38,614 nucleotides of DNA from a virus (Duplodnaviria > Heunggongvirae > Uroviricota > Caudoviricetes), in IMG/VR virus record IMGVR_UViG_2554235189_000017, positions 1 through 38,614 of that record; one strand, 5' to 3'. Shown here piece by piece: positions 559-22,512 of the stretch. Made by a program: the position numbers and the translations under genes. Every line of letters begins with the position of its first letter. The first letter of the stretch is position 1. Under the pieces are notes generated by a model. It had not been told where the DNA came from. It was given only the letters and a program-made list of their open reading frames with translations, and made no database searches.

Positions 559-2988
559 TTAGTCTCCAGGATTTCCGGGGCGGTTCAGGTAGGTCTTACT
601 GCCGTTTCTCATGTCAGGAGCCTCATCATCTGGATCAGAAAAATTATACCCAAGAGTTAAATCATTAACCGTGGCATTATTCCCTGTTATTCCTTTGACT
701 TGATTAACACTTAACGGTATGTAATTAAACCCTGCAAAAAGCGGTGTTAACTTTTCTCTAAATAAAAGGCCTGGTGGGTATACTAACGAAGGTGTACCAT
801 CATATGTCACTGAGATAATATTAAGTCCCTTTTTAAGGGTTCCAATGCACGTTGTTTGTTTGCCTGTAAATGATGTTAGCCCATTGCTGGCAACTTTACC
901 TGATAGATAAGAAGAGTTCCTGATGTCATTGAGAATGACATTGAACTGGTTAACACGATCTGATGAAGTATAAGTTGGGTTATATGGCTCAAATAATGTT
1001 ACAGAGATATCGCTTGTATCACTCCATACAAAATACCGACAAATAACATTTTCATTTGAAGGCGTAATCCTTCCCCATCCACCAAGTGCATCAAGATAAT
1101 CACCTCCACTTAATATCGAAATTGATGGATAGTATCTGGTATTTGAAGGGTATCCAATACCAATAAATGAAAGTTGAGTAGTAGGGATTAGGTTCTTATT
1201 TTTTACAGCTGTATAAACGCGCTCTTTTAATACCTCTTTTGCAGCATAAGCACCGATGTAAGCATGCCCTATCGTTGATGGATGACTCTGATCAAAGACA
1301 GTTCCTCCATCACGCTTGGAAATATCAGAGATAGAATACGTACCAATGTCAGCATAAGCGTCAGTTGTGGCAACTGACAGATCCAGAAACTCAACTTTTT
1401 GAAAAAGACGCTCGATACGCTTCTTAATAGCTGCCTCCAGAAAAGCCTTTGGTGCATCATTATTGTTTACAGTAACAAAGCATATAGGACAACCATATCC
1501 CCATGATTTTCTAATCAACTTTTCAAATTCATGAAAATACGCTTCAAATCCTATTGTTGGAAGTATTCCATTGTCATTAAAACCAAGGCTTATAAAAAGA
1601 ACATCAGGAGCTTTTTTTCCATACGCAGCATTCTGGAAAAATCCATAGTCGAAGTTTTCATAACCCCAACCTGTGGCTAAAGCCTTTCCTGAAGAGGCAC
1701 AGTTGTATCCTTTAAAAATATTTGTTGTACTGTCAGATAGCATGTTCAGGCAATCAGTGAAGATCCTGAACCAGGAATACTTTCCGCCATTGAGGTTGTG
1801 GTTGTGGTTGGTTGAATTAAGATTACCATCGCTATCAGTTGGGTTCGGGGTCCATCCTGAACTATAGGCTCCATCCGTTATAGAATCACCAATGATACCT
1901 ACATGGCAATCTTCTATAGTTGATTGGTAACTCTGCTTATTTGCAAATTTAGCAATTGTTCCAAGAGCAGTAAAATCAGGGCCATTGTTAGATAGCCCAA
2001 CATCAAAAACATGCTCATTACCCCATTTGTCTCTTGTGAGAATTTTACCTTCTCCAAGAAATTTAGTCACATCATCTGACGGTAAAAAATTACACCTGAT
2101 GGTTACATCTTTTGGGATGTAAATCTGACCGGGGAAAGCATAAATTGCACTTCTGTTGTCAGTTGTCGTGTTAATAACGACATTTGGAACATAAAATATT
2201 GACGTTGCGTCAGTTCTATATTGTCCGTTAACAAGCTCAGATCTGAGAACCGCATCCCCAACACCTCTCCAAGCGCCAGGGCCGACACCACCAGCAGTGG
2301 TAGGAGTTGATCCAGGCGGAACTACTTTGGGCAGTGGCCCGTCCCATCTGTAGTATTCGCCGTTGCTTTCCCAGAGAAGAACATCGTTAAGATAGATGAG
2401 GGTATTACCCAACTCAAAAGATTTCTTCGTGTTATATCCATACAATCCATTTCCTAAGGTTTCAATAATGGTGCTAAGTAAGGAACTAAATTTTGCATAA
2501 AGATCATCAGTATATTTTTTTGTAGCAGCATCTTGAGGAAGAGATGGATCACGAAGGTTTCTAATGTAATTTGAAAGCGCGTCATAAAAAATTGCTACGT
2601 CAGTTGGCTTTCTTAAAGCCAACTTATCATTTCTTAATGATTGTTGAATGAGCATTGTAAGTTTATCAAACGCATCCTCATGCACCTCAGCGAAGAACTT
2701 ACCCTGGTTGCGCAGATCGGTATCCTGCGTAACCGGTAGCTCTCTTGATATAGAAATCTGATAACCGTTAGCCAACGCCTTCGACAGAATTACATTGCCG
2801 CCGTTATACCCTCCAGCACCAGTGACTATGTAATCAGTATCAAGAATCAGCTCTGTGATGTTCTCGTTCAGGTCAACAACCTGCACTACTAAATCAGATT
2901 TCTGGAAAATCCTGAAGGTATAAGGGAATGCCGTTGTAACACCGTTACCGGTGTATTCGTTGTGGTCAACTTCGGTTGATACCGTCAT
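559..2988 (-). CDS. Tailspike/tail fiber with conserved N-terminal virion-attachment domain and central SGNH/GDSL hydrolase domain (putative O-antigen deacetylase); 3' end replaced by IS sequence
   Basis: 809 aa; N-terminus [17 protein letters not shown] resembles a conserved tail-fibre N-domain; GDSITDG esterase motif mid-protein; the last ~8 codons and the stop lie inside the IS inverted repeat. Confidence 0.75.
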
Positions 2989-3163: not shown

Positions 3164-3182
3164 ATTGCATGGAGAAGATAAG

Positions 3183-3440
3183 ATGCAGCGGTATCACTAT
3201 CCACTGGAAGACGGATTTACCGAAAGGATTCACACGCCGGGAGGCGTCAGGTCACTGGTGGAGGGATCGCACTTGATGAAATTACTCCGGGATCTCGATA
3301 AGGATGGATTTAATGTCGATGGCCCACTTGCCGAACTGACTGCACTGATTAACTACGTCACCAGCTCACAGATGACTATGCAGGATCTGCAAACACATCT
3401 CGACTATTGTGCCGAACAATTACGAAAACAAACCAGATAA
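3183..3440 (+). CDS. Small SOS-regulated antirepressor-like protein (Tum-like), 85 aa
   Basis: GGAG RBS 8 nt upstream; LexA box immediately upstream; sequence LMKLLRDLDKDGFNVDGPLAELT...DLQTH aligns with the C-terminus of the downstream Bro-N antirepressor (LMNLLNQLQEDGHDVSGAAAELT...DIQTH). Confidence 0.6.
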   Translation: MQRYHYPLEDGFTERIHTPGGVRSLVEGSHLMKLLRDLDKDGFNVDGPLAELTALINYVTSSQMTMQDLQTHLDYCAEQLRKQTR

Positions 3441-3454
3441 GATTTGAAATCACC

Positions 3455-3508
3455 AAGAGGAGTGCTTATATTTACCTTTGCGGTAAATTTACATCGCACT
3501 CCTCTTGT
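3455..3508. repeat. 12-bp inverted repeat (CAAGAGGAGTGC / GCACTCCTCTTG) enclosing an operator-like TTACCtttgcGGTAA (3472-3486)
   Basis: Read directly; a second hairpin CGGGCACTGG/CCAGTGCCGG follows at about 3520-3544. Confidence 0.6.
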
Positions 3509-3577
3509 GCCATAGTAATCGGGCACTGGCAAAATCCAGTGCCGGGATTGGCGTCCCGAGTTACTAAGTGGCGCATA

Positions 3578-3600
3578 CCACGCCAGACGTGGTTTTTTTA
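3578..3600 (+). terminator. Putative rho-independent terminator (CCACG-loop-CGTGG + T7)
   Basis: Short GC stem followed by TTTTTTT. Confidence 0.45.
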
Positions 3601-3755
3601 TGCGTTAAGCACAGCCATATCCGAATTATGGTGGGCTGGGCAGGGGTCCGAAAGGACGCCGGTACCACTTAGGCCGGTACGCCAACCTTGTCCAGTTCAC
3701 CACCAGTAATTGGCGTTGCGGTGGTGATTAAAATCACTAAGTGGAGATAACCACC

Positions 3756-4466
3756 ATGGCTAATGCTCAAACTGCCATCTTCAAATTTGAATCTGTTAAC
3801 CCTATCCGTTCCATCATTATCGATGGCCAACCATGGTTTGTAGCCCAAGACGTTTGTAGTGCGCTGCGTATCCAAAACGTCACCCAATCACTTGAAAAAC
3901 TGGATGATGATGAAAGGTCTATGTTCAACATAGGGCATGAACATCGTGCAATTTTTGATAGCCGAGTAAAAGAGATCAACATCATCTCCGAGTCAGGCCT
4001 CTACACACTGATCCTCCGCTGCCGCGATGCGGTGACACCAGGCACTATCCCCTACCGCTTTCGTAAATGGGTTACAGGTGAGGTTCTTCCTCAGATCCGC
4101 CGCACCGGAAGTTACATTAAAAACTCGCTCCCGCAGGAAGAACGCATAAAGATGGTTGCCGACCAGGTAGCCAACGCCACAGCATCAGCAGTGATGCAGG
4201 CAATGAAGATAGAGAACAAAACCTACAGTGCCCCACTGAAGCCCGGCTACCGTAGCCTGATTCATTCGCCGTCTGGTGTTCTCGGCCTGACTGAGAACTC
4301 ACTGCTGATGAATCTGCTGAACCAGTTACAGGAAGACGGGCATGATGTATCGGGCGCAGCGGCGGAGCTGACCACCATGTTCTGCTACATCGTCGGTGTG
4401 AGCAAATGCCTGCGTGATATCCAGACGCACGCGGAGTACATCAACGACAAGGCAGGGTTCTTCTGA
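3756..4466 (+). CDS. Phage antirepressor, Bro-N/AntA-like N-terminal domain with antirepressor C-terminal domain
   Basis: GGAGA RBS then ATG 3756; N-terminus AIFKFESVNPIRSIIIDGQPWFVAQDVCSAL is Bro-N-like. Confidence 0.75.
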   Translation: MANAQTAIFKFESVNPIRSIIIDGQPWFVAQDVCSALRIQNVTQSLEKLDDDERSMFNIGHEHRAIFDSRVKEINIISESGLYTLILRCRDAVTPGTIPYRFRKWVTGEVLPQIRRTGSYIKNSLPQEERIKMVADQVANATASAVMQAMKIENKTYSAPLKPGYRSLIHSPSGVLGLTENSLLMNLLNQLQEDGHDVSGAAAELTTMFCYIVGVSKCLRDIQTHAEYINDKAGFF

Positions 4467-4532
4467 CATGACGGCGGCACAGGGATGTGCCTTTAAATAA
4501 TTCTGTACAGATTGCAGGTGAATAGCGTACTA

Positions 4533-4547
4533 TTACCCCAAAGGTAA
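4533..4547. promoter_or_regulatory. Operator-like palindrome TTACCccaaaGGTAA upstream of the AT-rich two-gene operon
   Basis: Perfect TTACC-N5-GGTAA. Confidence 0.45.
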
Positions 4548-4664
4548 GAAAGTTGATTTGTAACATTTTAGTTTGTAGTTACCGTGATGGTTTTGCTGCA
4601 GAAAGTTAACTAGTCAAAATCACACCGTATGTAAGTCACGTCTGTTCCCGTATGGGAGGATGAT

Positions 4665-4883
4665 ATGTTTAAATTTGATATGCAACTCAACCAAAACTAT
4701 GCCTCTTTTTACCATCCAGAAACTGGTAAAGCTGTTTTCGTTGACTCTTTCGATAATGAAGAATTTGATATCAGAATTGGGACCCTACGCCAAAGTAAGC
4801 ATGTTGCTACTGTACGTGCATCCAATGATGATGAATTAAATCAAAAAATAAGTGAGGCGACCTCCCGTTATCTATGTCTATAA
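4665..4883 (+). CDS. Hypothetical protein (72 aa), first gene of an AT-rich two-gene operon
   Basis: GGGAGG RBS then ATG; ends 10 nt inside the next ORF (translational coupling); AT-rich versus flanks. Confidence 0.55.
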   Translation: MFKFDMQLNQNYASFYHPETGKAVFVDSFDNEEFDIRIGTLRQSKHVATVRASNDDELNQKISEATSRYLCL

Positions 4884-5251
4884 CAGAACAACAACTCATT
4901 GATCTTGAGGATGAGATTAACGAGATCTTGCAAGAAGATGCGGCAAGAATTCACTTTTCATTTCATGCAGCATATGAACGCCTGAACGACGAGAGGAACA
5001 AACCGCCAATTACTCTTGCTGAGCTTGAAGATGTGTTTAAATCGTTTATATCTGCACATCTGCAGACTGTTTTGGATTTTGCCGAAGGTACAACTTTCAC
5101 CATAAAGTGCAACAAAAGCGCCCTTCATTTTCCTTGCGCCATTGTACACGAAAGAGAGTTTGGGAAAACGTGGATTATCCAAAACGTCATTACAGCCATG
5201 AGGAAAGTGGGATTCAAGTCTAAAGATTCTATTATCCTCGAAGTTAATTAA
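4874..5251 (+). CDS. Hypothetical protein (125 aa), second gene of the AT-rich two-gene operon
   Basis: Overlaps upstream ORF; acidic helical N-terminus; followed directly by a terminator. Confidence 0.55.
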   Translation: MSITEQQLIDLEDEINEILQEDAARIHFSFHAAYERLNDERNKPPITLAELEDVFKSFISAHLQTVLDFAEGTTFTIKCNKSALHFPCAIVHEREFGKTWIIQNVITAMRKVGFKSKDSIILEVN

Positions 5252-5273
5252 GCCCGCGCCGCGGGCTTTTTTG
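5251..5273 (+). terminator. Rho-independent terminator (AGCCCGCGCCGCGGGCT + T6)
   Basis: GC-rich hairpin plus TTTTTT immediately after the stop codon. Confidence 0.7.
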
Positions 5274-5344
5274 TGGACGAAACAAAAGTCAGTGCTACAC
5301 TCATTGACGCCACATTGAGGTGGCTTATAGATGGAAATTTCACA

Positions 5345-5506
5345 ATGAAAAAAGCATTTGCTGCACTGTTCGTTTTGTTGTCTCTGGTAGCTTCAACTCA
5401 GGCCTTTGCTGGTCGTTGTCAGCACGACAGCGATACTGCCGCTGACGGATCCCGCTGCGGTGGGCGTTCTGCGGATTCCCGCCCGGGCGGCGGTGGCATT
5501 CGTTAA
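5345..5506 (+). CDS. Small secreted peptide: Sec signal peptide plus ~31-aa Gly/Arg-rich two-Cys mature peptide
   Basis: MKKAFAALFVLLSLVASTQAFA has classic n/h/c regions with an AxA cleavage site; no lipobox. Confidence 0.45.
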   Translation: MKKAFAALFVLLSLVASTQAFAGRCQHDSDTAADGSRCGGRSADSRPGGGGIR

Positions 5507-5512
5507 AAACAA

Positions 5513-5528
5513 GGCCGCGAAAGCGGCC
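5513..5528. terminator. Hairpin GGCCGC-GAAA-GCGGCC between convergent genes (possible bidirectional terminator)
   Basis: Perfect 6-bp stem with GAAA loop; T-rich run on the minus-strand side. Confidence 0.4.
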
Positions 5529-5529
5529 T

Positions 5530-5543: not shown

Positions 5544-5834
5544 TCATTTTCTGAATGATAGCCGTTCGAAAAATGATGACATTCCACCGCAGACAATAGC
5601 AAAGATGATCCCACCAAAGAAGAGAAGGCCAGCCTGCCACCACTCCCACCGCCATACATCCACAGCACCAACCATACCAACAATCGCTCCAACAAATGGA
5701 ATATAGCTCACGATGAAAGCAATGGGGGCTGCAATTATCCAGTGCAATCCCCACCATGATTCAAGCCCAGCCATAATTGCTGCCAACTGAAAAAGACCAA
5801 CGACGATATAAACAATGAATCCTATAGCTTGCAT
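5544..5834 (-). CDS. Small multi-pass membrane protein (96 aa); holin-like or lysogenic-conversion candidate
   Basis: AGGTGA RBS; about three hydrophobic segments; last gene of the minus-strand virion operon. Confidence 0.6.
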   Translation of the reverse strand: MQAIGFIVYIVVGLFQLAAIMAGLESWWGLHWIIAAPIAFIVSYIPFVGAIVGMVGAVDVWRWEWWQAGLLFFGGIIFAIVCGGMSSFFERLSFRK

Positions 5835-5846
5835 GTAGTCACCTAT

Positions 5847-6020
5847 TTACCCAGTAAAAATCAGAGGCCTCCCCTCAATAAGGCTTGCAACAAGAACTAT
5901 TCCCTGCACAACAAAGATGAACCAGCAAATAGCTTGAGTCTGAGGGTTAAGAAAATATTTGTAGCGGTCAATAAATAACAACCCACCAGAAATTATCACA
6001 CTCAAAATAATTAAAAACAC
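5847..6020 (-). CDS. Possible small membrane protein (~57 aa) with non-ATG start
   Basis: Open frame between the stop of the 824-aa gene and the 96-aa gene; hydrophobic; start codon (GTG/TTG) uncertain. Confidence 0.25.
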   Translation of the reverse strand: MFLIILSVIISGGLLFIDRYKYFLNPQTQAICWFIFVVQGIVLVASLIEGRPLIFTG

Positions 6021-22435: not shown

Positions 22436-22512
22436 GTGGCATTAGCTCAGTTGGACAGAGCAACCGCCTTCTAAGCGGTTGGTCGCAGGTTCGAATCCTG
22501 CATGCCACGCCA
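22436..22512 (+). tRNA. tRNA-Arg (anticodon UCU), phage-encoded
   Basis: Hand-folded cloverleaf: acceptor GTGGCAT/ATGCCAC, D-arm GCTC...GAGC, anticodon loop CTTCTAA, T-arm GCAGG-TTCGAAT-CCTGC, encoded CCA. Confidence 0.85.

Follow-up and report, generated by a model that had tools for sequence, protein, structure and literature searches.

A mobile two-gene cargo in a variable slot of epsilon15-like prophages, possibly an effector preceded by its translationally coupled inhibitor

The IMG/VR record IMGVR_UViG_2554235189_000017, of which all 38,614 nucleotides (nt) were analysed (hereafter "the window"), represents a podovirus prophage of the epsilon15/phiV10/TL-2011b type from Escherichia coli. 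It contains two small open reading frames (ORFs) on the plus strand, ORF1 at 4665-4883, encoding 72 amino acids (aa), and ORF2 at 4874-5251, encoding 125 aa. The two share 10 nt (4874-4883), an overlap that an earlier note written from the sequence alone had stated. We propose that ORF2, a single-domain representative of a large uncharacterised family, might be an effector and ORF1 its inhibitor or partner. The genes of this region are, from left to right, tailspike (559-2988, minus strand), a gene of 91 codons, a BRO-N/anti-repressor-type gene (3741-4466, plus strand), ORF1-ORF2, and a gene for a 53-aa signal-peptide protein, followed by genes for two small membrane proteins and for large virion proteins without known function, all on the minus strand. 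The BRO-N gene is located directly upstream of the pair, outside its cassette, and the antirepressor that the note had placed there is borne out by a Pfam Bro-N match (E 3.6e-19) and by the PHROG annotation 'anti-repressor Ant'. The stretch 4470-5290 is 100% identical to that of strain 602687 and 99.8% identical to that of H10407, a reference strain of enterotoxigenic E. coli (ETEC), which also has the pair.

The cargo cassette, i.e. the 5′ leader, ORF1, and ORF2, was delimited to 4553-5251 (plus strand) by junction alignments with CE10 and phage TL-2011b. Similarity to the sister prophages ends at ~4552 on the left and resumes at ~5252 on the right. Of the span 4533-5273 given in the note, the cargo itself is real, but the left edge at 4533 lies in shared backbone, the cargo beginning only at ~4553, and the terminator at the right end is likewise part of the shared flank. 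The cassette is indeed more AT-rich than the surrounding phage DNA, with a GC fraction of 0.386 compared with 0.490 for the window, and it is among the lowest 2% of all 700-nt windows. The only other equally AT-rich stretch is the 3′ part of the tailspike gene (GC 0.37-0.40 in its 3′ two-thirds).

The flanks of this slot were found in 413 of the 5,426 complete E. coli genomes, and the ORF1-ORF2 pair in four. A structural or housekeeping role in the phage life cycle is ruled out, because the pair is absent from ~99% of the E. coli genomes that have the flanks. In other genomes, at least five other types of cargo reside between the same flanks. The most common one is a 210-aa hypothetical protein; the others are two further hypothetical proteins, a DUF4760 protein, a DUF2335 protein, and, in phage TL-2011b, a 59-aa ORF that overlaps the gene of a YafO-family toxin (Pfam score of 26.3 bits at a cut-off of 25). 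The last of these has the same layout as ORF1-ORF2, i.e. a small upstream gene overlapping a larger downstream gene. None of the other cargos of the slot has a match in PADLOC. By this comparison of genomes, ORF1-ORF2 is a swappable cargo in a fixed slot, and the horizontal acquisition at a moron position that the note had suspected is thereby substantiated. Presence or absence between conserved phage genes and a deviant composition, both typical of morons, were found for the pair. Morons also have their own promoter and terminator; here the terminator is clear, but it is located in the flank, and the sole promoter candidate (8 of 12 consensus positions) is in the flank as well.

Homologues of both ORFs were found in Enterobacter, Pantoea, Salmonella, Klebsiella, and Chromobacterium, with ORF2 proteins that are all ~125 aa long. 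For Klebsiella, the assembly collection has the pair (70 and 125 aa) in more than 3,000 indexed blocks, and at least 1,000 contigs encode each of the two proteins. Bro-N is directly upstream of the Klebsiella pair in all five epsilon15-like loci shown, and in Chromobacterium an Arc-Arc-pRha/ANT module precedes the pair within a siphovirus tail operon. In the Chromobacterium violaceum locus (L010, 5215-5592), the gene for the 125-aa ORF2 homologue has not been called in the public assembly, where nothing is annotated between the ORF1 homologue and the tape-measure gene. In Pantoea allii (L009) and on a 405-kb metagenome contig (L012), the neighbours of the pair are housekeeping genes, with no phage around it. 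In all of these loci (E. coli, Klebsiella, Pantoea, Chromobacterium, metagenome), ORF1 immediately precedes ORF2.

When IMG/VR was scanned with the alignment of ORF1, 41 viral loci were obtained, and ORF2 is directly downstream of ORF1 in 40 of them. A lack of conservation, which the note had named as speaking against its proposal, can thus be dismissed. A Bro-N/Ant-like gene is upstream in only 15 of the 41 loci; in the remaining ones, the pair is next to a cI-like repressor, an integrase, a P2-like tail fibre, or a lambda gpK-like gene. In one locus (L026), the ORF1 homologue adjoins the 3′ end of ORF2 and is encoded on the other strand. The linkage survives rearrangement, because ORF1 has remained beside ORF2 in this changed orientation. 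Tight spacing of the genes is conserved in all homologous loci. The two proteins have diverged in parallel, with identities per comparison of 0.69/0.65, 0.71/0.73, 0.48/0.47, and 0.41/0.35. For seven homologous pairs, the pN values of both ORFs are 0.15-0.46 and the (saturated) pS values are 0.73-1.0, and this purifying selection indicates that both are real genes.

The pair is also found on plasmids. On pS44-1 of Aeromonas salmonicida (L027, 1506-3294), the ORF1 homologue is intact and the ORF2 homologue is split by IS5; pS44-1 is a conjugative resistance plasmid, and the pair is flanked by qnrVC6 and ISCR1. A Pseudomonas megaplasmid has a decayed copy. In addition, a 355-kb jumbo-phage contig of IMG/VR (L063, 1258-4637) encodes an ORF1 homologue with 51% identity without ORF2, directly after genes for a Nudix(Nudt16-like)-cREC fusion and a PIN-PhoH protein, and followed by an unrelated 139-aa ORF. 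Neighbourhoods with PIN-PhoH and Nudix-cREC have been linked to RNA repair, counter-defence, and ADP-ribose processing (PMC9503650). Taken together, linkage, co-divergence, and substitution pattern characterise the pair as a conserved, horizontally mobile unit under purifying selection.

The translation signals differ between the two genes. ORF1 is preceded by the motif GGGAGG (4654-4659), 5 nt before the ATG, so that the strong ribosome-binding site described in the note was found. ORF2 has no well-placed Shine-Dalgarno motif, the nearest GAGG being 17 nt upstream, and its translation should therefore depend on that of ORF1. The Klebsiella and Pantoea pairs have a 4-nt overlap (ATGA). A hairpin at 4639-4662 (plus strand) covers the ribosome-binding site of ORF1; in it, the CACGUCU box and UCCC pair with GGGAGGAUG (−9.5 kcal/mol, z −1.5). 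The Klebsiella leader can form a hairpin of the same shape (−7.1 kcal/mol, z −0.5). Neither hairpin is significant in comparison with shuffled sequences, and the element is weak; it may damp the translation of ORF1.

A rho-independent terminator, AAGCCCGCGCCGCGGGCTT plus a T-run, is located at 5250-5274 on the plus strand (stem 5250-5268) and comprises eight base pairs, six of them G-C, with −13.7 kcal/mol; it is as clean as the note had described it. It belongs to the shared right flank and is also found 3′ of the pair in Klebsiella. The candidate promoter, TGTACA-18 nt-TACTAT (4504-4533, plus strand), had an 8/12 consensus match in one scan and was not reported by a stricter promoter scan. 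The positional equivalent in Klebsiella is TTGCAA-17-TATATT (9/12). The window lacks 7 nt (ACTGGGG/ACTGTGG) that are present in CE10 and TL-2011b (L002, L003) between TTGCAG and TACTAT (window 4512-4533); this loss shortens the TTGCAG/TACTAT spacer from 17 to 10 nt, and the alternative −35 element TGTACA has a spacer of 18 nt. We infer that the candidate promoter drives the cargo slot. Both the terminator and the candidate promoter are assigned to the backbone, because the similarity to the sister prophages breaks off at ~4552 and ~5252.

Just past the Bro-N stop codon, the shared left flank contains a further hairpin, GGCACA-GGGA-TGTGCC (4476-4491, plus strand; −10.1 kcal/mol, z −1.9). It has been kept in CE10 and TL-2011b, and its Klebsiella counterpart, GGCGCA..AGCGCC, has a compensatory change. 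Possibly it acts as a weak terminator or RNA-end element and keeps the pair apart from the transcription of Bro-N. The operator-like palindrome proposed in the note did not hold up. Three imperfect 12-nt palindromes are present in 4533-4664, compared with 0.69 expected (p ~0.03); two have not been kept in Klebsiella, and the third, TCCCGTATGGGA (4646-4657), is the core of the hairpin at the ribosome-binding site and makes no convincing operator. When the upstream regions were aligned across genera, only the CACGTCT box and the ribosome-binding site were common to all, and no operator was evident.

The note had recognised no motif in either product, and neither of them has a match in Pfam or NCBIfam. 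In PADLOC-DB v2.0.0, ORF1 has no match and ORF2 has only a chance-level match to Cas8b (E 0.009, 13 bits). Both proteins are 'hypothetical' in every source, and identifier searches of the literature retrieved no paper that mentions ORF1 or ORF2. Their only firm memberships are in PHROGs, all three of which are annotated 'unknown function': ORF1 matches PHROG 14630 (E 9.5e-50) and ORF2 matches PHROG 14518 (E 7.3e-78), both over the full length, and for ORF2 there is a further alignment with the last 115 residues of PHROG 23027, a 602-aa protein of the Sinorhizobium phage phiM12 gp159 type.

A profile search of the full library retrieved 634 cluster representatives of the ORF2 family at E<=1e-3. 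ORF2 corresponds to a domain of ~115 aa, which in ~140 representatives was C-terminal (46), N-terminal (44), internal (17), or solo (33). An alignment of 46 sequences with 23-44% identity revealed the six invariant residues H31, R36, R41, E50, T107, and R110 and the near-invariant residues N38, D39, N42, I46, P87, M109, K111, and F114, and ORF2 fits the full-length pattern of the family, H..R..ND.RN.P.I...E ... T.MRK..F. By these profile matches, ORF2 is not an orphan, a point that the note had missed, but represents in solo form a domain that defines a large and uncharacterised family of phages. The conservation of six invariant residues across 46 divergent sequences makes it look catalytic. 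A putative member of 5,704 aa (P0129) with nine matching stretches was discarded as a false positive caused by cadherin-like repeats, and searches of the PDB profiles with the family alignments yielded nothing meaningful.

Most members of the wider family come from marine metagenomes and T4-like myoviruses; named phages with the domain are Sinorhizobium phages phiM12, phiM7, and phiN3, Methylophilales phage Melnitz, a Paraglaciecola virus, and Flavobacterium phage 'immuto'. In three marine T4-like contigs of 100-135 kb (L017-L019, 4001-4393), an ORF2-type gene is located between gp53 and gp5/PAAR. Its first base coincides with the last one of a 466-aa ORF without known function, and the baseplate genes gp5 (OB-fold), PAAR, gp25, and gp6 are immediately 3′ of the ORF2-type gene. 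The 466-aa and 278-aa genes upstream of marine ORF2-like genes have no similarity to the N-terminal part of phiM12 gp159 and do not correspond to it. A Pfam census of 104 multidomain relatives identified the fusion partners CTP_transf_like (HIGH-type nucleotidyltransferase, 19 members), DUF5824 (15), Zeta_toxin/AAA_33 kinases (PNK/zeta-like, 7), DUF5661 (2), DUF3008 (2), and PAP2, HNH, GNAT, and a fungal-tRNA-ligase-type (2H-type) CPD (one member each). An identity of the nucleotidyltransferase-kinase partners with NadR could not be confirmed, NCBIfam giving only sub-threshold matches to PSTK and NaMNAT.

ORF1 is predicted to form a four-stranded antiparallel sheet with a C-terminal helix (predicted local distance difference test score, pLDDT, of 90.9). 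It has an isoelectric point (pI) of 5.2, the median of its family being 4.6, and the motif VDSFDNxEF is invariant in the family. No match to ORF1 was found among the PDB sequence profiles. Across the loci compared, members of the bacterial/prophage clade of ORF2 always come with ORF1. Neither an ORF1-like gene nearby nor a hidden ORF1-like segment was found for the lytic-phage and multidomain relatives of ORF2.

Among the known systems, type II toxin-antitoxin modules resemble the pair in consisting of adjacent, co-oriented, and coupled small genes, with one ribosome-binding site before the first gene and one terminator, and in their patchy mobile spread over several prophage types, plasmids, chromosomal islets, and genera. 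In contrast to them, ORF2 belongs to no recognised toxin superfamily, ORF1 has no ribbon-helix-helix (RHH), helix-turn-helix (HTH), or AbrB domain, and the upstream palindromes are weak and not conserved. Because it lacks a DNA-binding domain, ORF1 looks more like an immunity or inhibitor protein than like a classical autoregulating antitoxin. The small-ORF plus YafO pair of TL-2011b shares the overlap layout, co-termination, AT-richness, patchy distribution, slot, and flanking signals with ORF1-ORF2; homology of ORF2 to YafO itself is not supported (hhalign probability of 0.07%). Barnase-barstar and the Rhs/CdiA pairs also combine an enzyme with a small acidic inhibitor, but in ORF1-ORF2 the inhibitor would come first, and the fold matches are too weak to argue for homology. 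The census of multidomain ORF2 relatives contained no fusion to the delivery domains Rhs, CdiA, LXG, or PAAR, and such fusions are the mark of polymorphic toxins.

The ORF2 domain also resembles the effectors of polyvalent proteins, in that it occurs either alone or as an N-terminal, middle, or C-terminal part of large phage proteins, where it is combined with enzymatic domains. PBECR RNases have a His (or Arg) in an N-terminal helix and a Ser/Thr in strand 4, and their contexts are MuF, portal, and metallopeptidase proteins (Iyer, Burroughs and Aravind 2017, PMC5512222). The invariant H31 of ORF2 is in the N-terminal helical part and T107 is near the C-terminus; in a low-confidence model, the two residues fall in a helix and the C-terminal strand region, respectively. 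In contrast to PBECR, the partners of the ORF2 domain are HIGH nucleotidyltransferases, DUF5824, and kinases. None of the 46 family members has a Pfam match to PBECR or LPD, and one of the 46 has a weak match to MuF_C (E 0.003), which is not significant after 46 tests. Homology to PBECR/MuF_C is not supported by the profile comparisons, hhalign giving a probability of 0.7% for the C-terminus of Mu gp30.

We favour the interpretation that the pair is an autonomous mobile effector-plus-inhibitor (toxin-antitoxin-like) module, in which ORF2 is the effector and ORF1 the translationally coupled inhibitor, and we assign to it a probability of roughly 45%. A role in toxin-antitoxin function, exclusion, or anti-phage defence, as the note had suggested, is compatible with all data and is our best reading, at somewhat less than even odds. 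The backbone supplies the terminator and presumably the promoter, and ORF1-ORF2 is the cargo. ORF2 would be an enzyme or a tight binder that acts on a phosphate-bearing target, RNA or a nucleotide, and harms the cell. ORF1 would bind and block ORF2 as a stoichiometric inhibitor, plausibly by inserting the hairpin with the invariant acidic VDSFDNEEF into the basic conserved site. The 10-nt overlap and the missing Shine-Dalgarno motif of ORF2 would ensure that ORF2 is made only alongside at least equal amounts of ORF1. The prophage could gain by abortive-infection exclusion of other phages once ORF1 is lost or titrated, or by stabilisation of the element. The absence of ORF1 near the ORF2 domains of lytic T4-like phages would be expected if the domain is harmful and a guard is needed only when it is carried long term.

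The mobility of the pair, as seen in its distribution, is of the kind shown by conflict modules. Three further cases also fit an effector with an inhibitor, namely the YafO-family toxin pair that occupies this slot elsewhere, the orphan ORF1 of the jumbo phage, and the split ORF2 next to an intact ORF1 on pS44-1. Several observations weigh against it. The cases of the jumbo phage and of pS44-1 are single ones. ORF2 has no match to a known toxin, nuclease, or defence protein in the profiles of Pfam, NCBIfam, PADLOC, or PDB, and its structure model is unreliable (pLDDT 45.7), so that neither fold nor active site can be read from it. The E. coli ORF2 is acidic (pI 5.2), in contrast to the basic wider family (median 9.1). 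The nucleotidyltransferase, kinase, and 2H-type CPD partners would fit repair or counter-defence as well as a toxin. The fold matches of the ORF1 model are generic, and no RHH, HTH, or AbrB fold is among them.

Alternatively, the pair might benefit the phage directly, with ORF2 acting, like the homologous domain in T4-like lytic phages, in host takeover or counter-defence (e.g. by processing RNA ends or nucleotides so as to blunt host immunity) and ORF1 as a chaperone, adaptor, or timing regulator rather than an antidote. The ORF2 family stems overwhelmingly from lytic T4-like phages, its fusions to HIGH-type nucleotidyltransferases, PNK/zeta-like kinases, DUF5824, 2H-type CPD, PAP2, and HNH have an architecture resembling that of polyvalent early effectors (PMC5512222), and the gene sits between gp53 and gp5/PAAR in the marine contigs. 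Moreover, an anti-repressor gene, expressed early after infection, precedes the pair in prophages of the epsilon15-like type and of Chromobacterium. We nevertheless regard this explanation as doubtful, since it leaves unexplained why ORF1 keeps strictly to the bacterial/prophage clade and is missing in lytic phages, why the pair stands alone in chromosomes (Pantoea, metagenome contig) and on plasmids, and why a jumbo phage has ORF1 alone. The proximity to anti-repressor genes could also mean that the pair is a regulatory accessory of the immI type, which modulates Bro-N/Ant activity or lysogeny decisions; it is directly 3′ of Bro-N in the E. coli and Klebsiella loci and 3′ of Arc-Arc-pRha/ANT in Chromobacterium. 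Such a role is highly improbable, because most loci have no Ant neighbour; in addition, the pair occurs without a surrounding phage, unrelated cargo is 3′ of the same Bro-N in ~99% of the E. coli genomes with the flanks, and neither protein has a DNA-binding signature.

The pair might also have another accessory function without any harmful effector, e.g. as a two-subunit helper in stress or metabolism, or be a selfish passenger without a laboratory phenotype. The lack of homology to known toxins and defence proteins, the ORF2 model without a readable fold, and the acidic E. coli ORF2 would be in accord with this. However, strong purifying selection, the invariant polar residues in both proteins, the patchy distribution, and the YafO-family toxin pair in the same slot of sister prophages make it unlikely. 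Returning to the effector-inhibitor interpretation, a wider version of it is conceivable, although we hold it with considerable reserve. ORF2 could represent a new superfamily of enzymatic effectors, marked by the six invariant residues, which T4-like lytic phages use, solo or fused in nucleotidyltransferase-kinase polyproteins, against the RNA or nucleotide pools of their hosts, and which was domesticated, together with the new-fold inhibitor ORF1, as an abortive-infection or addiction module in temperate phages, plasmids, and chromosomes of Enterobacteriaceae; the orphan ORF1 of the jumbo phage would then be an anti-toxin that defeats it.

The surroundings of the pair yielded additional observations. 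A second variable slot is located at 3441-3740, between the 91-aa gene and Bro-N. The copy in the window is empty, apart from promoter-like and terminator-like sites. In sister prophages the slot is filled, e.g. by a 242-aa protein in H10407 (L001, 4180-4908), and the fillings in Klebsiella are DUF2335, DUF6236, or DUF4760 proteins (L005, 3674-4478; L007, 3540-4391; L008, 3967-4467). None of the second-slot proteins has a PADLOC match. The 91-aa ORF (3165-3440, plus strand) and the last 80 residues of the Bro-N protein match the same two PHROGs, 450 and 15539, and the ORF looks like a stand-alone copy of the C-terminal domain of the anti-repressor.

On the right side, the 53-aa protein (5345-5506, plus strand) has a signal-peptide-like N-terminus and two cysteines and matches PHROG 14503 ('membrane associated protein', moron category); it has been kept in the right flank of every cargo variant. 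A hairpin at 5512-5529, 3′ of its gene, was called a minus-strand terminator by the scan. The two small hydrophobic proteins encoded at 5544-5834 and 5847-6020 (both minus strand; 96 and 57 aa) are distant from any lysis cassette, and the 96-aa protein matches PHROG 3075 and has a sub-threshold holin-like Pfam match (E 0.026). The tailspike contains a GDSITDG motif, suggestive of a candidate SGNH/GDSL esterase, and the gene of its homologue in H10407 (L001, 225-3705) is cut by an insertion of ISCro1 (IS66 family). Finally, a tRNA-Arg gene (anticodon TCT) is located within the prophage at 22436-22512 (plus strand).

The ORF1-ORF2 pair is not rare, and both of its protein families are undescribed. 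If ORF2 is indeed an effector restrained by ORF1, the known toxin-antitoxin and abortive-infection systems would gain one new family of toxins and one of inhibitors, and one of the cargos in a recurrent prophage slot, located between the tailspike and ejection-protein genes, would be accounted for. The pair would also offer a first experimental handle on a domain that is found in hundreds of proteins of marine and soil T4-like phages, including the nucleotidyltransferase-kinase fusions. Even if ORF2 proved to be non-toxic, its link to these proteins would still point to a phage function worth assaying.

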